A stretch of 63,745 nucleotides of DNA, counting the filler, from Phoronis australis (Eukaryota > Animalia > Phoronida), in assembly GCA_002633005.1 (NCBI GenBank). It is 7 parts of 7 records of this genome, joined end to end, with 100 filler letters (N's around TTAATTAATTAA, not from the genome) between each part and the next. Parts side by side here need not be neighbours in the genome. Positions count along the whole stretch, not along the records: positions 25,875 to 34,134 come from NMRA01001914.1; 6 more parts are not named here. One strand, 5' to 3'. The notes beneath the pieces were generated by a model. The model was not told the DNA's origin and searched no databases. It saw only the letters and a list, made by a program, of their open reading frames with translations. The number at the start of each line of letters is the position of its first letter. The first letter of the stretch is position 1. This document shows, piece after piece, positions 25,775-62,338 of this stretch. The position numbers were made by a program, and so were the translations under genes.

Positions 25775-25874
25775 NNNNNNNNNNNNNNNNNNNNNNNNNN
25801 NNNNNNNNNNNNNNNNNNTTAATTAATTAANNNNNNNNNNNNNNNNNNNNNNNNNNNNNNNNNNNNNNNNNNNN
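25775..25874. other. Artificial contig spacer (same spacer at 34135-34234, 40714-40813, 54417-54516, 60326-60425, 62239-62338)
   Basis: Exactly 44 N + TTAATTAATTAA (stops in all six frames) + 44 N, six times. Confidence 0.97.
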
Positions 25875-28800
25875 AAGTTCCTTGCCAGTTTCATCTACAA
25901 CGCAAAACTTGGGCGCTGTTTGAGTAGCCATGTTCACTTGATCCTGGCAAACAGTTACTGCATCATTAACAGCCAATGTCTCTCGCAACTTTTGCAGGTT
26001 AGAAATGTTTTGCGTTTCAGATGCCCTAAGAAACGCTGGTTTAATTCTGTTAATGTGAAAAACGTCACGCAAGACTCGACCTCGAAGATCTGCTAGAAGG
26101 ACGTGTCGAATCTAAAACCTGGTGAACCACAAATGGTCCTACATACTTAGCTGTGAATTTCTTAGCATCAGATGTCAAACTGGAACTATTGGGTTTGTGT
26201 AAGTAAATTAGCTGTTCTGCTTCATAAACAGGGGACTTATTCACCCTCTGTGAGATTTTCTCATTCTGAGATTTTTGTTGGTTGGCCTGTAGATCCATCA
26301 TGAATTTGGAAACAGACTGGAAGCAATCCTTCAGTTGTTGGATATAGTCTTTCTGACAGCTAGATAGACCTAAGAGAGGTTGGAAGTTTAAACCACTGAA
26401 ATCACCGGGTTCTCTATAAAACACAAGGTAGAATGGTGAGTGATCCTCTAATTGTGGCGAGGAAAATGTATTAAATGAATATTTGGCAACACCCAATCAG
26501 TTTGATCAAGTCCGTGATGGAATGGATCTGACGCTCAACATGTAATGAACCATGGTTTAATACGGACACAACTTTGTGGCCGATCTTCAATGCGCTGCAT
26601 AGAATGTCCATCACTTTGCCAATCAGCGACGACTGCACATCAGTAACCAAAACTTCAGGAATCGCAAAACGGCAAATAACGCGTTGAATAAGTGCCTCGC
26701 ACATAGATGGCGCATCAAGCGTTTTCAAAGGAACACAAACGGTGTATCTAGTAATGGCACAAGTAGTAACCATTAACCATAAGTACCCTGACTTCGACAT
26801 GACCATTTTCTTAAAATCCAAGGATATTGTCTGGAAGGGACAATACGAAACAGGTATACGTTCATGAAGAGGTCTTAGAATATCAGTGTTACCCTTGAAT
26901 TCTTAGCATCGTGCACAAGACTGGACATAGGACACAATACGTTGATACACGTTGGGGAAATAGAACAGTTTTCGCATCGTGAGTAAGTTCTCACACAATC
27001 CTGGTGATTACTCAAAAGAGAATCATGGTACTTCGATATCAATGGGTCTATGAACTTTTCAGGAATCACAAGCTGCAGACAAAAACGATCCTGGCCATTT
27101 GGGAAGAGCAACCTGAAAAATAGGCCATCACACAAGTACTGTTCTGATCTAAGCATGATAGATCAAGCAGCCTTTTTGTCACTGGGCAAGATATTGTGCG
27201 CTAAACAATCATAAATAGGTTTAAAATGTGGCGAAGCCATTTGGGCCAAACGGAACTGTTGAGCCTCAAAAGGAGGATTGTAGTCACGAAGTATCTTCCG
27301 CTTAATAATCTTGAGAACTTTGTTAAGCTCACGTTGGTTTGGAATTTGTTGTGCAGTCATGTCATCAGTATCGGACACCAAAGGTTTTGGCTTTTGTAGA
27401 AACTCTGGAACTTCCTCCCTCACTAGAAAATTCCTCTTGTACACTAACCCTAGTGGACACCACGTTATCAACCAACCTAGGTTCAGAAGCTACCTGACTA
27501 GGCTGTAAATCTGTCCTAGTATTCACTCGACTAGGTACAGGCAAACTAGCACAAAATGGGATAGGTTGACTATCAGGTTCCTCAGGAGTTGTCAACGTAT
27601 CGTTAACTGGTTGGTGATTTCTAGCACATGAAGAAGGCGATATCACGTCGTTACCTGACAGTGGTGTACTGGACGGAGTATCTGTGATATCTGGACTGTC
27701 TGGTCCGGATACAGGTGAAGTGCTGCGTGAGGACACTGAGCTGGAACAGGGTGTGTTCTCGGGGAAAAATGGGTTTAATTGGTATCCGATTCTTCGTGGC
27801 AAATGATCTAGTGACTGGTCTTTCAACAGGGGATGGTCTGAAAGGGAAAGCATGATCATTTGAGAAAATACCACTCAACTGCACAGGCATTGCAAAAGAC
27901 ATAATGCGTTCAAGTTTGTTGTCATCATCGCAGGGACAGTGGCTTAAAAAGTCAGAAATGACCATGTCAGCACCTTTCCTGTAAGACAAGTCAAATGAGT
28001 ACCGAGACAATCGTTCAAGTAGTTTTTGCAACCGAAGAGTTGGTGGTTGAGTCTTAGAATTATAAATTTGGACAAGTTAGAGATGAATGGTCAACATAGC
28101 AACGAAATGATCGGTACTGCAGGTAGTACTTCCAAGCAGTAATGTTGACAAGAAGACCTGTCAGTTCAAGCTCACTGACACTACATCTTAGAGCAGCAGC
28201 AGGTAAGAGTTTACTGTAATAACAAATTACCCTTTGTTCACCTTCAATATCCTGCATCAAAACAGAGCCAGTACCTGACCAAGATGTGTCACTATAAAGA
28301 TGAAACTCTCCATCTCCCTGTGAAGCACACAAGACCGGAGGGTTTGTTAACATGTCCTTAATGGTTCCGAAAGCGACATCATGTTCCTCATTCCATATGA
28401 AAGGCTGTTTTCTCCTGGTAAGAGAATGCAAAGGTGCAAGTAAGTCCTGCAATTTAGGAAGATACATACTCCGGTAAGTGACAGTACCAATAAAACGTCT
28501 AACCATTTTGTGAACAGCAACGCATTTACTAGCCATAGCCTGTACATGTACGACACCCTTATTGTCTATGTCAATATCGTGACCAAGTAAGTACATCAAC
28601 GTCGAAATAGACTACATTTACTGGGTGAATGCTTTAAGCCATACTCTTCAAATTTTTGTAGAACACATTCTAAGTGTTTCATATGTGTCCCTTCATCCTG
28701 TGAGAAAATAATGCAATCATCACAAATCGCAACAAAAAGTATCATGTCCTGGAATAGTAGCCAACATTTCATTCATTTGTTGTTGCCATCTTGCTGGTGA

Positions 28801-29644
28801 CATGTTCAAGCCCATTAGGAAGACGTAAATACTTATACATGGATGAACCAGGGTACGGACATATACCAGTGTATTTCTGAGAATCTTCAGACAGTGGTAA
28901 AGTATGAAAGGCACTCTTCAGATCAATAATAGACAGCACACGACTGTTGGAGCGTCCTAGCCGCGCTGACATTCTGTAAGCTAATGTAATTTTGCTGAGC
29001 TGCAAGGACTCTTTTGTTTAAGTATCTGAAGTCAGACACAAATCTATAATCATGTGAGTCAGGTTTTTGTATGAGCATGCATGAAGAGCTGTAAGCTGAA
29101 CAATCTTTCTTCAGTATTCCCAGCCTGACAAGTTTGGATAGTTCCCTGTCCATAACAGGTTTGAGATTATCAGGTATGTTATATGGTTTGATGCAGAATG
29201 GAGTGCAGTCTTTCAACTCTATGCTAACTTCGATGTTTGGACAATGCCCCATCTCCCCATACAAACTAAAAGCATCAGTATGCCTGTCTAACATATTTGG
29301 AACTTTAGTCTTACCATCGTTATTCAACACTCATCTGTATCTAGCTGAATTGAGTTTCTCAATACCTGAATAGGCGACTGCTTACTAAGAGAGTCTGTTT
29401 TCTCCACATGGGGGTATTTGGTCAACACCTCATACTGGATGTCAGATTCGCATTCCTCTCTGGAAATGAAAGCCTGCCAGGTGTGTTGGTCAACTGCATG
29501 GGACACATACGCCAACTTACTCAAATCTGTAAAGCCAATAGATTTGTTAGCACGAATATGTAAAACACGACAAGACGTATTAGTTATGGGAACAGTACAG
29601 CTGCTGCGTCTGAGCTTGACAATCATGTGGTCAGGACAATACTC
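25875..29644 (-). mobile_element. pol: Decayed Ty3/Gypsy pol (RT, RNase H, integrase)
   Basis: Fragments YRFVSDFRYLN, IDLKSAFHTLPL, RLPNGL, AICDD (RT); LYSDTS, YYSKLL, ELELTGL, YVDHSSL (RNase H); KYHDSLLSNHQ, PEVLVTD, VERQI, KYVGPF (integrase). RT-RH-IN order; many frameshifts and stops. Confidence 0.93.
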
Positions 29645-30366
29645 NNNNNNNNNNNNNNNNNNNNNNNNNNNNNNNNNNNNNNNNNNNNNNNNNNNNNNNN
29701 NNNNNNNNNNNNNNNNNNNNNNNNNNNNNNNNNNNNNNNNNNNNNNNNNNNNNNNNNNNNNNNNNNNNNNNNNNNNNNNNNNNNNNNNNNNNNNNNNNNN
29801 NNNNNNNNNNNNNNNNNNNNNNNNNNNNNNNNNNNNNNNNNNNNNNNNNNNNNNNNNNNNNNNNNNNNNNNNNNNNNNNNNNNNNNNNNNNNNNNNNNNN
29901 NNNNNNNNNNNNNNNNNNNNNNNNNNNNNNNNNNNNNNNNNNNNNNNNNNNNNNNNNNNNNNNNNNNNNNNNNNNNNNNNNNNNNNNNNNNNNNNNNNNN
30001 NNNNNNNNNNNNNNNNNNNNNNNNNNNNNNNNNNNNNNNNNNNNNNNNNNNNNNNNNNNNNNNNNNNNNNNNNNNNNNNNNNNNNNNNNNNNNNNNNNNN
30101 NNNNNNNNNNNNNNNNNNNNNNNNNNNNNNNNNNNNNNNNNNNNNNNNNNNNNNNNNNNNNNNNNNNNNNNNNNNNNNNNNNNNNNNNNNNNNNNNNNNN
30201 NNNNNNNNNNNNNNNNNNNNNNNNNNNNNNNNNNNNNNNNNNNNNNNNNNNNNNNNNNNNNNNNNNNNNNNNNNNNNNNNNNNNNNNNNNNNNNNNNNNN
30301 NNNNNNNNNNNNNNNNNNNNNNNNNNNNNNNNNNNNNNNNNNNNNNNNNNNNNNNNNNNNNNNNNN

Positions 30367-31440
30367 AAAAACCCAGACAGAGACAGAATAATCAGAGAAG
30401 TTAGATTGTCAGAGAACGAAGGAAGGTATGCCCGAGCAGTTCAGATGGGTCAGCAGGGGGCGTGGACGAAGTGGGGCAAAGTCTTGCAAAGGGAAATAAA
30501 GTGGGCGGACTTGTGGAAGATGTCGCCTTTGAAAGCAAAGTTTCTCATCAGATCTGTTTATGATGTACTGCCTACTCCCAGCAACCTTGCTATTTGGGGT
30601 CTTACTGACAACCCGAGCTGTATTCAGTGTGGACGCAGATGTTCTTTAGAACACATTCTGTCATCTTGCAGTGCGTCTTTGGCATCAGGAAAGTACACCT
30701 ACCGGCACAACCAGGTACTGAAAGTTTTCGCAAGGGTGTTGGTTGACGAAGTCAAGAGTAAACCAAAGTCAAGAAGCCACCGGATCGAATTTATCAGTTT
30801 CAGAAGAAGTGGCGATGAGGCAAGTAAGAAGAAGTCACCAGCGCAGAAAGGCATCCTTCACACAGCCAACGACTGGAAATTGTGGGTTGATCTTGCCGGT
30901 CACCAGTCATCCTTCCCACAGCACATTTTCCAGACTACCCAGCGCCCTGACTTGATTCTTTATTCGGATAGTTCCCACCAGATCATCCTGATCGAGCTCA
31001 CCATTCCGTGGGAGAGTAGGGTAGAAGAGGCACACGAGCGGAAGAACCTGAAATATACTGATTTGAGGAGTGACTGCCACGTTAACGGCTGGAGATGTTG
31101 GAGTTTTTCCGTGGAGGTTGGTTGGCGTGGTTTTCCGGCCAGCTCGGTTACTGCTATGGCAAGGTCTCTGGGCGTCTCTGTGACAGGAAAGAAGGTTCTT
31201 CTCCGCGATGTGGCCACCGAAGCTGAACAGGCATCTTGTTGGATATGGATGAAGCACCAACAGCAATACCATCAACAACCGTCTGGCAGAGCCTGATCAA
31301 CTCTGTTGTCCCGCCTACTAGAGATGGTCTTGGTTTAGGGACGAAACCATTAAGGACAGTGGGAGACCAACTGAAGATGACGGTTGAGCACAGTTCCATC
31401 AAGTGTTTAAAGTAAGTTCTTGTTAAACTTCATGTCATTC
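30367..31440 (+). mobile_element. 3' end of an RLE-type non-LTR retrotransposon (HERO-like), inserted antisense in the Gypsy gag
   Basis: ORF 30406-31296 has a CCHC knuckle (CIQC..LEHILSSC), RHN, RPDLIL..IELTIPWE, K..KY..L and VEVG.RG of the restriction-like endonuclease; about 145-bp 3' UTR ends where the gag frame breaks. Confidence 0.9.
31308..31377 (+). ncRNA. Candidate rearranged hammerhead-like RNA motif in the retroelement 3' UTR
   Basis: GUC, GAAA and CUGAAGA core segments with pairable stems I, II and III (see findings). Confidence 0.55.
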
Positions 31441-31800
31441 TAGTGCTTGATCATGGCGTATTCGGATCGATTTTCACAAAATCGTTCGAAGAACTGTTTT
31501 TCCAAGTCTTTCTTCGAAGTAATCGTCATGCTCTGCACCCACAAATGGGCTTGTCCTGCTAGGGACAAACAGAAGTGGAGGCAAATGTCTGCAAGATCTT
31601 CCGTCTCTGTTTTGGTCGACAAATCATGAATCTGCAAGTAGTCTTGGAACTGTAGCCAATGTGTTTGCACAGTCTCAAACGAGCCATTGTCTCCCGTAAA
31701 CTTTGGTTCCGGTAAGAACTCCGACGCTTTCAGTTTTCCTTCCTCATGCTCGGATTTTCCACCATGTAATGTTGCTCTGGGCGTATCACCCAATCTGCCC
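31441..31800 (-). mobile_element. gag: Gypsy gag N-terminal fragment
   Basis: PEPKFTGD...HWLQFQDYL...FCLSLAGQAHLW...LEKQFFERF resembles a retrotransposon gag domain; same strand as pol. Confidence 0.75.
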
Positions 31801-32000
31801 GGCCATGCGACAACGATAGATTCACAAGATAAAAAACGCAACTCTTGCCACCATTTAATGTGTATTATCGCTGACCCGCCAAAATCCCACAACGCTCTGC
31901 GTGACCAGAGGAGATAACACTCATAACAATAATCGCAGAAATTCATTGGCAGACACAACATACTCCCTAATCTCTAAAAGTAGTTCATGGGCAGAAGTCA

Positions 32001-32655: not shown

Positions 32656-34741
32656 CATTGTAAACTTTAGTTTGGTATTCAGACGAGTTGGATGAACAAA
32701 TTTAGTATAATTTCATATTTTAGTGGGAAATGCTAGTGTCCTTAAAATTAATTAAAAACATTTGAGCAAACCAATTCTTTTAATTGTTGTACTATACCAC
32801 GGCATACTAATGCGTAGAAACGGCGCACAACTAGTGACTAGTTTAACATGACAAAAACATATACGCGGTCTGAAACGAGTGAAATTCAGACACCTATTAC
32901 CAAGCCTGCGTGAAGGGCTGACAAAGTTTTTATTATATTAATTTCAAGGGCATGGAGTCTTCTACATGTCCATGTTATTATTTTTAGTTTTCTCGCGGGG
33001 GCAGCTTCGCTATAAGGGTACAACTTACTGCTGGTTTTTCACAAGAAGGAAATGTGGCTCCACCGAAACAGTTCCAGTGTTACCATGGTAACCGATATTT
33101 CCGTGTCGGTGCCGTTTTTACTGACATTGGTCATGAACCTATCATGTGATATCAAAATTGTTCAGAAACGATTCTGTTTGAAGGAGAAAGTGGAGTAGAA
33201 AATTTGGTCAAAAATGGCTCATTCCACATCAAGAAATTGCCTCATTTTGCCCCCCAGAACTCTTGGCCTTGTATCTCCTAAACCACCAAACTTTGTGGTG
33301 TCATACTTCACCCAATTTCTTTCATTCGTAATGTGATTTATCAGTCTAAACATGGATCTGAATGGCTGACCCCCCACCTTGCCGCTTGGCTCAGTGTACA
33401 GTGGTTGGTGGATTCGTGGACTCGATGTGCAAATAATCTTAAATTCCCTTTAAATAATGTATTTTCTGAAAGAAATATAGTTTGGTTGCAGGCCTTCGTT
33501 TACACAAACTTTGTTGAAAACAGAACTAGACTTTTTGCTTGAAAGCTTGGTAGTAGCCTCGTAGTTTTGGAACAGTTTCCCGCCTTTCTTCAGGTGTGTT
33601 AGTGCAGCTATATAGTAAAATACCAAGAGACATAACAAATATACAAATTAAAACACTAGGTCAAACCCAAAAAACTACAAGCGTACCACTATCAAGCTTG
33701 GTTTTGGCGAAATTTTCTGAGAGGTGAATAAATTTTTCCTAACAACCTTATTTACATGTCTTTATTTTTTCGAGAGATATACATTTTGGAAAAAATAGAT
33801 AACTTGGAACAGAGATTTTGAAAATGTTATTCTAAGATATATTTCAAAAATCTGAGATACGGTTCCCCATTGTCAGCGTGTTGACAAAAGACTAATGGGT
33901 TTAGAGGAACATTATTTTAAATTTAATTTTATCTGTTCTAACAAATTTTTTTTTATCAAAAATATATCTTGTGTTAAAATAAAGACATTAAAGTAAATAT
34001 TAAAGGCCTATGGTCCGAGTTATAGAAGAAAAAAACCTCTTAACGCCGTTTAAGCCGATTTTTTGATGTGACATGTTGTTCAAAAAGTTATTAACTTTCA
34101 ACTTGTGCAAAAAGTTTGAAAAAAATCGTTGTAANNNNNNNNNNNNNNNNNNNNNNNNNNNNNNNNNNNNNNNNNNNNTTAATTAATTAANNNNNNNNNN
34201 NNNNNNNNNNNNNNNNNNNNNNNNNNNNNNNNNNCTAAACATGTTTTTCTCCATTCTCTTCAAAAAAGCAATGAAAAGACCTATCATTTGGTATATCACA
34301 CCATATAGTTTGTTAATGGTATATTACACCATATAGTTCATTAACGTAAAACAATAAGACGTTTTTGCAGTCATAATGGTGGCCATATTGTCCGCCATTT
34401 TGGAATTTGGAATTTTTTGTTTTCTTAAAAATGTTTCTCACCAAGTAAATGCTAGGATTGTCATATCCTGAAATTTTCATGTTGTTATTAAAAGTATTGA
34501 GGAAGTTATTGTGAAAAAACTAATTTTGGGTCACATGAATGCGCATTTACTCCCATGTATTCAGAGGACTAAAAAAGGGGTAATTATCGCTCTTCAAACG
34601 TTCATAAAAAGTCAACGGCTTAATGGATTTTGTTAATTTTTTTTGTTTGACTCTGTTTTTGATGTTTTATTAAATCAATGCATTTTTAAATATTAAATAA
34701 GAATTTGAAATTTTTTGTCACGTCCCTAGCACAGAGCACAC

Positions 34742-36788: not shown

Positions 36789-39085
36789 GAGCACACATGA
36801 ACAAAATGCCTCCGGTACGTACTATTAATCATCACCGTGTGACGTACCATGTATCTAAAGCTATACATTGTGTTAAAACGTTAAGAAACCAATGAACATA
36901 GTGGAGAAAACGCAAATTTATGTGAAGTTTTCTACTGAGCAGCTTCAATGCCCATACTTGTACTTTCAGGTGTTAGCAGCCTACTTACGCAAAGGTGCTA
37001 TCCACCTGGACAAGCAGTCAGCGATAGTTTAAACAACTTGTTGGTGCCATCACCGGACGAATGGTCAATGGACCAGCATCGCCCTTTGTACCAGGCGGCT
37101 ACTGCTAGGTAACTGATGCACAAAACAAATCGAACGACAACAACAACGGTTCGTGAAACAGTGGTACATGCTAGTTATAGTAACGGAACATGTAAACAAA
37201 AATCCGGTTTCAAAATCACTGTGAGCGGAAATTGAAATGATACAATTGGATAGATGTTCATAATCGCAAGACTCTCGCTACAATGTAGTAGGCTAGTACG
37301 GTTAAGTGTTTAACTTTTAATAGATGGTGTTATTTTGCCCATAAATTTGCGTTTGATTGCAAGATTCACGTCTCTAAGGAACGCACGCCTGTTCTCCGCT
37401 CATCTTGAATATTGTCGTCAACGTCTTATGTGACACAGTCAACACCAAGTACGAATTCTATGCTCACTGTATTAATGTCTTGTTTTAGGACAAAGATAAG
37501 GCAAGGGTCCATGCCACCAGGTAGGTTTGGTTGCGCTCTATGCAGTTCGATTTTTTCGGTTGATTAGTTTCGTTCAGTCCAAACAGAGCTTCACTGCACG
37601 TACATAATTTTCCTTTAATCACAACTGGAACAGTTAACACAGTAAAACTACAGGCAATACATAATATATTCCCATCAGCAGTGATAATACATACGCCGTG
37701 TGGCTAGATGTCGATGGGGTGGTTTGAGGACAGCGTTCTGCGATCTTTTATCGATTTAATGACGTAGTATGTTTCCAGCATCTTCTATAAAGTCTTTGGT
37801 GTCGTCATTTGCCGTCAAATTGCCAATTTTGTTCAATGCAATTGACAAAAGATTCGTGCATAGAAGCCCGACGTCCTATAAATGAGAAGAATTGCATTTC
37901 GTACCTACAGAATACTCGATCCGTTTTGAACACCATAACTGGACACGAGACATATGCATGATTGTATAAGTTTACTTCCTGCTAGTTCAAAACGATTTTG
38001 GAACGAAGTTCGTGTAGTAATAATTCGATTTACGAAAAACATGCCGCCGATAAGGGGAATTCAAGGAGAGATACATGTATATGTACGTGACGAGGATGAC
38101 ATCAGGTGATGCATAAATGGTGCCAGTGGGGAAAACGGTTTTGCACATTTTTGGACACGATATAAAGCAACGTCTTCACCCTGTCGTTTTAGGTCTCACG
38201 CAATTACTTTCCTTTCAATATTGTGGTTGGTCACCCTCAAATGCGCCAGTGTGATGATCGCTGGTGGTTAGAATGATCGGGATAATAAAATATGAGCACA
38301 ACTCCAGAAATCGTGTTCGCAATACATCCAGGTTCTCATTCATTCCCTTGCATACCTTCACTAGACCGAGTTCAGATCAATAGGAGACAATTTTGTGCAA
38401 TGATTGATTGTCTGCCAGTGACGCTAGGATTCGAACCCAGGTCTCTCAAATAGAAGTCCAGAACTCACACCACTGAGTCACACTGATGGTGATGATGAGG
38501 GTCGTGGTGATGATGATGATATTGATGATGACGTTGACGAAGATGACAACGACGACGACAGTGATGATAATGGTAGTACTGATGTGCATGAAAAAGTACA
38601 AACTTTGTTTCAGTTATGTCTGAGCGAAAACGACCCAGAGCTGCTAACACAACCAGATCACTCTCACGTTCTTGGTTTAATACAGATCAACACCCAGTTA
38701 CTCCTGCGTTCGTTAACAGAACAGTTTCGCTTAGATCCGCCGTACCATTGCCCTTACAAGTCACGCCAGTCGACGACCCATCATTTCCATACGACACCAT
38801 TGCCGCCAATCGCTTAACGCGGACAAAAAACGACTGTCACGCTAGTCTTGTCTGCGTGGCACCTTCTCTTCCTGCAGCACCAAGTACGACATTACTGGCT
38901 GCTTGCGTGGAGCAAGGACTGGGTCATTATTGCACTCCACAAATCTTATTTCGAAAGGAAACACCTGCCAGAAACTCTTGCCCAAGGCCTAGCCTACCCA
39001 GCCTACACGAACATGCCTCTATGCGTTCTGTTTTTCGAAAGTACGGCTCTGAGGCATGCATGTTTATCAATCCGGAAAAGTTTAA
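36789..39085 (+). CDS. Kinase gene N-terminal exons (36789-36814, 36970-37108, 37489-37520, 38614-39085)
   Basis: All have AG/GT boundaries with pyrimidine tracts and splice into one open frame leading to the kinase exon; no known domain recognised. Confidence 0.6.
38230..38475 (-). mobile_element. tRNA-derived SINE remnant
   Basis: B-box GGTTCGAATCC on the minus strand at about 38427-38437; extent approximate. Confidence 0.4.
38484..38585. repeat. Imperfect (GAT/GAC)n microsatellite
   Basis: Run of gat/gac/ggt triplets. Confidence 0.8.
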
Positions 39086-40713: not shown

Positions 40714-40813
40714 NNNNNNNNNNNNNNNNNNNNNNNNNNNNNNNNNNNNNNNNNNNNTTAATTAATTAANNNNNNNNNNNNNNNNNNNNNNNNNNNNNNN
40801 NNNNNNNNNNNNN

Positions 40814-54416: not shown

Positions 54417-54987
54417 NNNNNNNNNNNNNNNNNNNNNNNNNNNNNNNNNNNNNNNNNNNNTTAATTAATTAANNNNNNNNNNNNNNNNNNNNNNNNNNNN
54501 NNNNNNNNNNNNNNNNATCCTTCTACTACTTAATTGTATATATCTCTATGTACATAAGTTTCATTTATGAATTGTTTACAACCCAGATATAATGCTTCGC
54601 GGTTTCTGGGTTTGTTATTATTTCTTTGTATGTTCTGTGTATCCTTCAATAAATATATATCACAGTGGAAAAAAACATCGGGGAAAAAGAAAAAGACAGT
54701 GAGGGAGAGGGATAGGTAATGAGGGACCAAGGAAGGGGGGATATAAACAATAACCCTATATCATACAAAACATCCAACTATAAAAACTTTAAATAGTAAT
54801 TAACAAACTCGCAAAAAATAATGATTTACCAAATACAGTGCATGTAACAGATTGACACCTGCCCATATCCAGCTGGGAAGGACAGTCTAAACTTCAAGCT
54901 TAAATTGTTGGGTGGAGCCTGATGAATTTGAAAACTCAGAGTTCGTCTTCAAAATCACATTTGACAGTTGGTGAATCAAAAACATAC

Positions 54988-60090: not shown

Positions 60091-61289
60091 ATTAGATCTC
60101 AGTACTTCCAATAATCTAGATTTGGTCAAATTATTTGGCTGACGGTCACTTTACAAGGTTCATGTATATGATTTTATCAAAAGAGATGAACTTTTCTAAA
60201 ATCATATCAGTAGATCCAATCATTTTGATTCGGTCAGATTATTTGGTTGACGATCATTTAACAAGATATAAAAGAACAATTACCGTTGTCGATGGCTCTC
60301 AATCTAATCCACGCAGGTACGCCATNNNNNNNNNNNNNNNNNNNNNNNNNNNNNNNNNNNNNNNNNNNNTTAATTAATTAANNNNNNNNNNNNNNNNNNN
60401 NNNNNNNNNNNNNNNNNNNNNNNNNACTTACGGCTCCCCGCCTGTGGAACTAAAAGCTCACCTAGATCGACTGCCGGGCGTGCCCCCAAAATTCAGAAAA
60501 AGTAGAGCCTAGAGCAACAATTTTCCAGTTCCCTCCCCGGGTTCCGCCAAAAATTGCCACTCGCGACTGATCGAAAGAACTAAAATAATCTACGGGAAGG
60601 TCCGATCCGTCTCCACCTAGTCCCACCAGGTACGGAAACAGGGTCCCTCGCGCAATCAAATTAGTCCGCTAAATAGCGACTATGCCAATGTAGTGATATT
60701 TCTAAAGGTCTTACCTTACATCTTAGTTGTCCGTGGTCGAGCTCAATAGTTCTGCTTAGGTGTGCGGTCTGGATATCGAATGCCCCTCTGCATCCAAACA
60801 TGTGTATCGGCCGCAGGGCCGCTTAATTAATATTCATGATGCGCCCTCATTGGCCATTACCAGCATATGGGCCGGACAGCCAATGTCGGCAGTCTCCAAG
60901 ACGAACAACAGTTGTCTTCCGATGCCAATAGAGGGCGCGCGCAGCTGAAGGCCAGCGCAGCAGTGAGACCAGTCAAATAACGTCTCACTACACTATTACT
61001 CAGTCTCAGGTCCTGGCCCTTATCATGTTCAATGCTGACATTACTGTTCAATGCCAATGCAAATGGAGTTCGACAAATAGTATTGTTTACAATCCGATTG
61101 GCCAACAGATAGCTCTCAATTTCATGACGCTCAAAGTTGACGCATATGATCCCTACACTAACTTAACTGCTGAATAACAGACTAAAAGCATCCTTTGTGC
61201 TGGGGAAACTAAACTAAACCAAATCAAGCAGGAGTGAAGTTTTTAATTACATTACTTTTAAATCTGGTTTTGTTAATAGTTGCATTCAC

Positions 61290-61510: not shown

Positions 61511-62338
61511 ATTGCCCTATCTGACTAGTACCAAGAAGATTTTATTTCGCATTTTTTGTACATCCATTTCAATCCAAAGCTGTTAAACTCGAGACCTCTA
61601 CTAACTCATTATTGCATAACTCATCACTTTTAATTTGTCACTTTTTCTTGGTCTCAATTACATGCTCATTCATTGACTTGTATAAACTATACAGTTTAGT
61701 CGTTGTTAAGTCATCGTTTCCCTTAAGTCGTCGCTCAAAAGTGAAATCTGCCCTCACAGTTACATGCATTTTTATGCTTAAGTTGTCACCATTCACCAGT
61801 CGACTTGTATTGTCATGTGTATTTGCGGCAAGTATGATTGTGGCAGCTTGAATAACGACAAATTTTACAAAGGTCTGTCAATCAATATCGGGTTCACTCC
61901 TATTAAAGAGAATTTTAAAGGTTCAACTCTTCTTAACACAATTTCCACAGCATCTTCAATGGCTAACATCATCATGCATGCAAATCGTCACTCAGAATTT
62001 CGATTACTGATAATGAAGTACTTAAATTTACTAACCAAGTACAGCTACTTCTAGCAGTTGTTGTGATCTGTGTGTAAGGTTGTGAAAAAAAACCCAGTGG
62101 ATTGAAGAATTGGGAGTTTCAGGACCACTGCTAGTGATTAGTTCCTAATAGAATATCCCCTTTTAAATGTGGCTGTGTCTTGTATGTTGCCAGGTGCCAT
62201 GTCTGGTCTAGAAGAGATAGGAATTCCGGGCTCTGAGTNNNNNNNNNNNNNNNNNNNNNNNNNNNNNNNNNNNNNNNNNNNNTTAATTAATTAANNNNNN
62301 NNNNNNNNNNNNNNNNNNNNNNNNNNNNNNNNNNNNNN

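Follow-up and report, generated by a model that had tools for sequence, protein, structure and literature searches.

Hammerhead ribozymes and RLE retrotransposons

The hammerhead ribozymes of Penelope-like elements and retrozymes are circularly permuted and mostly of type I, and the elements that carry them lack either an RLE domain or coding capacity. They provide precedents for dimer-dependent cleavage and for circular RNA intermediates. Like these, the motif described here is a hammerhead core carried by a retroelement of eukaryotes that shows partial head-to-tail repeats, but its predicted fold is pseudoknotted, its core is opened, and it resides in an autonomous RLE LINE.

Non-circularly permuted hammerheads were described by Eckert et al. 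(2023); the available text of that paper (PMC10085705) defines three blocks, C, G and S, and treats each as uninterruptible beyond one or two bases. According to the same text, RNAs of type SGC (HRIMA-1 and variants) and type CSG cleave, the former at rates of 0.007-0.19 per minute, and they come from metatranscriptomes and metagenomes, none of those given there being from a known eukaryote genome. In the available portion of the HRIMA-1 alignment (PMC10085705), most rows have one extra U between A9 and stem II, and the step from A9 to stem II thus tolerates insertion.

Among RLE retrotransposons, R2 has an HDV-like 5' ribozyme that self-cleaves the read-through transcript (PMC13580325 and PMC7650587, in the portions available). 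Elements of the HERO clade, which occur in lancelet, fish and mollusc hosts, have a single ORF with a reverse transcriptase (RT), a zinc knuckle and an RLE; no ribozyme or tandem structure is mentioned in the available text of the two papers concerned (PMC4640811, PMC9004415). A search of the open full-text literature (subscription papers, Repbase Reports, patents, theses and bioRxiv supplements being outside its scope) found no hammerhead described for HERO elements or for the 3' end of an RLE element, and the accessible portions of PMC7650587, PMC9004415, PMC4640811, PMC13580325 and PMC13708176 describe no core-opened hammerhead. Here we report a conserved predicted fold that contains every catalytic letter of the hammerhead, in a strand order not found in the literature searched. 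The motif is common to a widespread family of animal retrotransposons.

The host element

The window, i.e. the whole stretch of 63,745 nt of Phoronis australis DNA that was analysed, contains an ORF of 308 codons that is open from the edge of an N-gap to the stop codon TGA at 31294-96. The 722-N gap (29645-30366) swallows the upstream part of this ORF, including the element's own RT region. Based on the zinc knuckle (zf-RVT match, E 2.9e-5), the PD..E..K endonuclease motif common to relatives (31 of 63 relatives aligned), and the RVT_1 and zf-RVT domains of L006, a full-length relative of 1180 aa whose best matches in the PDB are R2 proteins, the feature is the 3' end of an RLE-type non-LTR retrotransposon. 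The layout of such elements (one ORF with RT, CCHC knuckle and C-terminal PD-(D/E)xK) is present, the RT being seen in full-length relatives. The ORF has 63 relatives at E<=1e-10, and the named ones are from mussel, lancelet and fish. A HERO-like label, given on domain layout, varied flanks and host range rather than on an RT tree, is plausible: as in HERO elements, going by the available text on these, the relatives have ORFs of 1,100-1,200 aa, varied flanks and no fixed target that could be seen. No relative was present in the viral contigs searched.

The RLE element is located between Gypsy-type pol pieces and a downstream frame without a Pfam match, and is a nested insertion within a decayed LTR retrotransposon on the opposite strand (Table 1). 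Elsewhere in the window, at 38416-38484 on the minus strand, Rfam gave a weak tRNA match (32.6 bits) whose acceptor and anticodon stems are broken; it probably marks a pseudogene or the head of a tRNA-derived SINE. N runs of 44 bases occur in six pairs, with 12 bases between the members of a pair (25775-25874, 34135-34234, 40714-40813, 54417-54516, 60326-60425 and 62239-62338), and look like a masking or assembly pattern.

Table 1. Features at and around the 3' end of the RLE retrotransposon (positions in the window)
Feature	Position	Strand	Remarks
Decayed LTR (Gypsy-type) retrotransposon	26065-29330 and 31440-31973	-	several broken frames; RNase H E 6e-21, integrase E 7e-9
RLE-type non-LTR retrotransposon ORF, 3' end	30367-31296	+	zinc knuckle and PD-(D/E)xK endonuclease region
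P0, 5' strand	31276-31283	+	last ORF codons; 8 perfect pairs with 31379-31386
Hairpin Ph	31285-31307	+	31285-91 with 31301-07, 7 pairs; loop contains stop codon and palindrome UGAUCA (31294-99)
Stem II, 5' strand GUCCC	31308-31312	+	G10.1 = 31308; pairs with GGGAC 31338-31342
Stem I-II joining helix, 5' strand CCUACU	31314-31319	+	pairs with AGUGGG 31358-31363
K-turn-like internal loop, unbulged strand	31320-31322	+	GA 31321-22; opposite 3-nt bulge and GA at 31352-56
Block S	31323-31334	+	GAUGGUC 31323-29 (stem III strand, GUC triplet) and UUGGU 31330-34 (stem I strand)
Linker, stem I to block G	31335-31337	+	3 nt
Block G	31338-31351	+	stem II 3' strand GGGAC, C11.1, G12-A13-A14-A15.1, stem III strand
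GAAA and stem III strand	31343-31351	+	GAAACCAUU
Joining helix 3' strand, stem I 5' strand, CUGAAGA	31358-31377	+	AGUGGG 31358-63, ACCAA 31366-70, CUGAAGA 31371-77
P0, 3' strand	31379-31386	+	begins 0-1 nt past A9
Terminal hairpin and element 3' boundary	31387-31427	+	31387-91 with 31403-07 (predicted fold); boundary ~31411-31427 (sister-copy ends)

Architecture of the motif

The hammerhead core segments and helix strands that the initial annotation had recognised at this 3' end, nine segments in all, were each located where it had put them. The whole feature spans ~31276-31410, and the core letters CUGANGA (C3-U4-G5-A6-N7-G8-A9) and G12-A13-A14-A15.1:U16.1 are all present. The linear order is a stem II strand, S, G, and then a stem I strand with CUGANGA. 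The two parts of block C stand at opposite ends of the motif, and the predicted cut falls after C31329 of the GUC triplet. The core is not quite as close to the ORF as had been thought: CUGAAGA begins 75 nt after the stop codon rather than within 70 nt of it.

P0, hairpin Ph and the terminal hairpin are parts that had not been recognised before. The stem II partner does not follow CUGANGA, in agreement with the annotation, and the bases past A9 form P0 instead. In the fold of the window copy A9 leads into P0 and G10.1 emerges from Ph; drawn as a junction, four helices meet (the core G.A pairs, P0, Ph and stem II), and we suggest that this four-way junction brings A9 and G10.1 together from opposite ends of the motif. 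The helix formed by CCUACU and AGUGGG had been regarded as an extension of stem III. The pairing is real, but the helix is better read as one that joins stems I and II and is linked to stem III by the K-turn-like loop.

The window copy has an intact core and is slightly aged. With A at 31284, as in most sister copies, P0 reaches the base that follows A9, and with A at 31361, again in most of them, the joining-helix pair becomes Watson-Crick; many sister reads have A at 31286, giving a better pair. The minimum-energy nested fold of the window copy, obtained with an energy method that cannot score pseudoknots, has stem II and P0/Ph paired, and stem III and the joining helix unpaired. An upstream CUGAUCA (31293-99) was considered as the true core and rejected; it forms the Ph loop and becomes GGCC, GUAC or CAUG in relatives.

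Compared with type-SGC hammerheads as given in the available text of PMC10085705, the motif has the same cyclic order, the same 3-nt linker and the joining helix (helix 'I' of type SGC). Type-SGC RNAs have an intact block C and end between the joining helix and stem III, whereas the retrotransposon motif has its ends inside block C (A9/G10.1 opened, then closed by P0 and Ph) and joins the type-SGC chain ends through the K-turn-like loop. Blocks S, G and C in this order and uninterrupted, as the type is defined, are not found here. The motif would thus work like a type-SGC hammerhead yet stand outside that type by definition. Ordinary SGC pairing directly after CUGANGA was rejected as an alternative for most copies, since it offers at most 2 pairs in 36 of 47 copies, 3 in 2 copies and 4-5 in 9. 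Type-SGC cleavage has been shown in vitro in the part of PMC10085705 available, whereas that of the retrotransposon motif is predicted.

In its consensus form a K-turn has a 3-nt bulge and then tandem G.A and A.G pairs. Of 49 distinct copies, 26 (that of the window among them) have this signature in the loop that separates stem III from the joining helix, compared with a mean of 1.2 and a maximum of 5 in shuffles, and the loop may accordingly adopt a kinked geometry. On the axis of hairpin Ph, 28 of 48 distinct inserts have a 4-nt palindrome, compared with 3-6 at other offsets; the six types are GAUC (15), GGCC (6), CAUG (3), ACGU (2), GUAC (1) and AAUU (1), and the palindrome is missing from the other 20 inserts. 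A count of palindromes of at least 6 nt (also 28 of 48) is inflated by stem pairs and was set aside in favour of the axis test. Switches between types need paired changes, and four bases cannot pair inside one loop; the palindrome might therefore serve loop-loop pairing between two RNAs. A self-duplex of the Ph loop in the window has 6 pairs and -7.0 kcal/mol.

Occurrence among relatives

Relatives were taken from a scan of metagenome contigs, the best 79 loci being used from at least 510 confirmed relatives. A scan of prokaryote genomes added 4 short contigs, one of which reaches the ORF end, and 80 loci were examined. The element pieces on short contigs in three bacterial genome records (L080-L083) are of animal type and likely represent contamination.

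With a descriptor in which the core, P0 and helices I, II and III were obligatory, 46 of the 80 loci were parsed within 560 nt, and 2 more further out. The full architecture was found at one place in the window and at 50 in related loci; these 51 matches, from 678,810 bases searched on both strands, are all on the ORF strand, none is inside an ORF, and they lie 63-733 nt past the ORF match or just ahead of a 5' UTR. When GAAA, CUGANGA and the triplet were held fixed, 51 of 9,400 shuffles were parsed and none of the 9,400 reached the lowest real score (69). A covariance model built from 38 sequences, with stems I and II left out, matched 62 of the 80 loci (the best 79 of at least 510, and one more), always after the ORF. 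Among the 18 without a model match, 10 have at most 340 nt beyond the ORF match, L018 has only the CUGANGA end at the start of its contig, and the ORF match of L037 stops at residue 251. In the remaining loci (L044, L045, L049, L056, L057 and L066) the motif is absent over 415-3,993 nt.

The motif is spread across most of a quick protein tree, and one clade is largely without it (no motif in L041, L049, L056, L057, L063 and L066); L057 is nonetheless tandem-like. In L063 a run of short repeats containing CUGAYGA is located upstream of the ORF (~130-250). In two copies of one family (L054 1893-1996 and L061 1576-1685) the predicted cleavage triplet and the stem I strand are lost through an 11-nt deletion. 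Stretches resembling tRNA by eye, with A-box and B-box look-alikes, were noted just before the motif in four 3' UTRs (L017 1860-1935, L021 1200-1280, L022 2430-2510 and L039 3300-3338). Their identity as tRNA was not confirmed: ARAGORN found none in 17 loci, and Rfam gave no support.

Comparison with Rfam, which had been proposed as a check on novelty, gave no match to the motif: there was none at the gathering score in the window, a search of 31150-31500 at E<=10 returned one weak, unrelated match only, and 12 related loci had none at E<=1. Overlap of the stop codon with the motif was rejected as a conserved feature, since only 15 of 49 copies have the stop codon within Ph or P0, and in 30 of 49 it precedes P0 by 1-641 nt.

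Conservation of the core and covariation of the helices

Near-invariant catalytic letters, a free N7 and a position 17 other than G are the pattern imposed by hammerhead chemistry. The motif copies follow this pattern at a mean identity of only 56% among the 38 chosen by the descriptor. In the model alignment G12 is kept in 64 of 65 copies, A13 and A14 in 65 of 65 and A15.1 in 67 of 67, and among 66 copies C3 is kept in 63, U4 in 66, G5 in 65, A6 in 65, G8 in 64 and A9 in 65. N7 is free (U 43, A 12, C 9, G 2). The cleavage triplets of 47 intact copies are GUC (19), GUU (16), GUA (9) and AUA (3). Position 17 was unconstrained in the search, yet it is G in none of these 47, and in the wider alignment in 1 of 66, a copy that is also damaged at 11.1. 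The 10.1:11.1 pair is G-C in 36 of 38 copies and G-U in 2.

Conservation and covariation in related elements, whose absence the initial annotation had named among the grounds for refuting its reading, were both found. All six helices covary. In a sequence-only alignment of the 38 copies, 80.7% of 1,293 cells are paired, compared with 58.5% when shuffled and 35-42% when slid, and double changes occupy 329 cells compared with 115, with at least one double change in 35 of 37 pairs; these cells count sequences, not events, and relatedness is left in. Stems I and II (8 pairs), which were outside the model, are 90.8% paired in 68 distinct rows and have 136 double changes compared with 34, and in the alignment, which was fitted to neither, stem II is 91% and stem I 90% paired. 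P0 begins directly after A9 in 40 of 47 copies and one base later in 7; 32-38 of 38 copies are paired at each of its positions, compared with a fraction of 0.37-0.53 across loci. All 7 pairs of Ph show double changes in relatives.

The features by which a hammerhead is recognised are thus mostly present, namely the core letters, a NUH triplet between stems III and I, covarying stems I-III and a purine 10.1 paired with a pyrimidine 11.1. A link between stems I and II at their distal ends is given by the covarying joining helix (31314-19 with 31358-63), which by analogy with type SGC may have this role in three dimensions. A stem II strand within 0-2 bases after CUGANGA is not found; P0 occupies that place. 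With the core conserved and the helices covarying, the annotation's reading is supported in so far as it proposes a hammerhead-like fold that is pseudoknotted, non-circularly permuted and placed at the 3' end of an RLE element. Mainly because conservation follows hammerhead catalytic rules, cleavage is to be expected, and the predicted ribozyme probably cuts itself after the NUH triplet.

Copy boundaries, tandem junctions and RNA reads

Reads and contigs of sister copies with the same species label pass into unrelated flanks at 31411-31427, i.e. 82-98 nt downstream of C31329, and DNA depth shows no drop at the predicted cut. Isolated relatives also end shortly past the terminal hairpin, where by eye they have a GCA..UGUAU hairpin, and integrated copies retain the whole motif with the site uncut. 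Thus, the cut is not what sets the 3' end of the insertion, contrary to the earlier suggestion that it defines the transcript end for target-primed reverse transcription (TPRT); the template must have carried both halves of the motif joined.

A census of 5' UTRs by their repeat-type pattern gave 21 clusters, of which 3 inside ORFs were dropped. Sixteen of the remaining 18 lie 42-122 nt after a model match, one (L018) follows CUGANGA at the start of a contig, and one (L044) follows an ORF end without the motif. Seventeen of the 18 visible 5' UTRs therefore come after the tail of a sister copy, and none of the 18 clusters follows unique flank. As a side observation, the 5' UTR opens with a small hairpin followed by two to six GAC..GGAAAGAC-like repeats in 18 loci (L003 1990-2150, L008 1429-1600, L017 2119-2300 and 15 others); the repeats are kept across families and are perhaps an internal promoter or translation element.

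The upstream partial tail is 99% identical to the downstream copy in L011 and L012, and 92% in L001. In most tandem loci the upstream copy reaches well beyond the cut site and into the ORF. L024 has the order flank, 5'-truncated copy, ribozyme motif, next 5' UTR, and L016 and L025 have exact terminal overlaps with units of 3,836 and 3,713 nt. In L006 (1-1375) two families that are only 70% identical over 1.3 kb meet in a seamless head-to-tail joint, which calls for template jumping or for insertion behind a related element. As metagenome contigs collapse repeats, there may be an over-count of tandem junctions. In the tandem arrays the motif is placed just upstream of a copy's 5' UTR, as is the R2 ribozyme in the available text on that element. 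The R2 ribozyme belongs to a different class; it occupies the element's 5' end, and its cleavage takes place at its own 5' edge. By contrast, the cut predicted here falls within the motif, which all integrated 3' ends keep whole.

In three RNA runs (157, 205 and 76 reads; 18-19% of each run) there was no pile-up of read ends at 31329/31330. Reads cross the predicted cut site at the shallow depth of 10-30, on both strands, and look like host read-through transcripts; the lack of a pile-up carries little weight at this depth and mixture. The contig of L007 ends (1279) exactly on the predicted cleavage triplet and that of L001 begins one base into the predicted 3' product; with one case each, which may be assembly chance, they were not used as evidence of cleavage.

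Proposed mechanism and alternatives

As the best reading, with about an even chance of being right, we suggest that the predicted ribozyme excises unit-length RNA from head-to-tail transcripts and that this RNA is probably re-ligated into a circular template; given cleavage, such a circle is rather probable. Transcription would run through head-to-tail copies, and each motif would cut after its NUH triplet, releasing unit-length element RNA whose ends, kept in place by five helices (stems I-III, P0 and the joining helix), would be re-ligated into a circle. The element protein would prime reverse transcription just past the terminal hairpin and copy across the rejoined site. Less than one round of copying would leave a 5'-truncated copy with a whole ribozyme, as in the window, and more than one round a partial copy joined to a full copy. 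A circle fits copies that keep both halves and end 82-98 nt beyond the cut, the position of nearly all 5' UTRs behind a sister tail and never behind unique flank, the near-identical upstream partial copies of L011, L012 and L001, and the arrangement of L024. Cleavage itself has a parallel in type-SGC ribozymes that share the stem I-II helix and 3-nt linker and cleave in vitro (PMC10085705, available text). Against the circular template stands L006, where one circle cannot yield a neighbour that is 70% identical. The RNA reads without an end pile-up, the 5' UTR of L044 behind a motif-less ORF, the motif-less clade with its tandem-like member, and the nested fold (blind to pseudoknots) also argue against excision and re-ligation, and no tested precedent for a multi-helix insertion at A9/G10.1 was found in the literature searched. 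In a fuller form, which must be regarded as doubtful, a LINE clade would replicate via ribozyme-made circular RNA, with the core opened by the four-way junction, bent by the K-turn and gated by RNA-RNA pairing of Ph loops.

The evidence from the core and covariation would fit equally well if the ribozyme were active on a linear template. By analogy with the R2 HDV-like ribozyme (PMC13580325, portion available), an upstream hammerhead would cut the read-through transcript and thereby generate the next copy's 5' end, with a leader of 80-100 nt able to anneal to the tail of a sister copy. Element protein, ribosomes stationed at the stop codon or a dimer requirement would restrain the downstream ribozyme, and tandems would arise by template jumping or insertion behind sister copies. 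The joint in L006, which needs such a jump or insertion, the contig start of L001 one base into the predicted 3' product, the palindromic Ph loop that could pair two RNAs, and the 15 of 49 copies with a stop codon inside Ph or P0 are in keeping with this. However, two identical ribozymes on one RNA would have to behave differently, the upstream copy extends well past the cut into the ORF in most tandem loci, and gating by ribosomes could not be a general rule, the stop preceding P0 by 1-641 nt in 30 of 49 copies; a linear template is thus possible but tentative. LINE proteins bind their own RNA at the 3' end, as in R2, and the location of the motif, the uncut site in all integrated copies and the RNA reads that cross it would suit a fold derived from the hammerhead that serves as a binding or priming platform for RT, its catalysis disabled by the inserted junction. 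This is improbable, as a binding site is unlikely to obey catalytic rules (G5, G8, G12 and A9 fixed, N7 free, position 17 non-G). It is still less probable that an active ribozyme acts mainly in quality control or host protection, destroying stray read-through or translated RNA while an uncut fraction retrotransposes. At the slow type-SGC rates much RNA could stay uncut, and the motif is kept whole, but this gives no account of the 17 of 18 5' UTRs that are found behind a sister tail at a short and similar distance. Chance resemblance in one decayed copy, with which the lack of a matching Rfam family would agree, is refuted by the spread of the motif (62 of 80 loci, the best 79 of at least 510 plus one), by shuffles with fixed anchors (0 of 9,400 at real scores) and by covariation of every helix.

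Implications

If our reading is true, the motif adds a hammerhead topology that is assumed to be impossible in the available text of PMC10085705. It would also place in animal genomes a pseudoknotted class so far represented by environmental RNA, with dozens of diverged examples for structure work. If Ph loops gate a circular pathway as outlined above, pairing of two element RNAs through them would also account for the seamless joints between different families. RLE elements are under development as gene-insertion tools, so the formation of their RNA ends would be of practical use. For the RLE clade itself, the finding would provide a concrete RNA-processing step, and possibly a circular template unlike that of the linear TPRT of LINEs.
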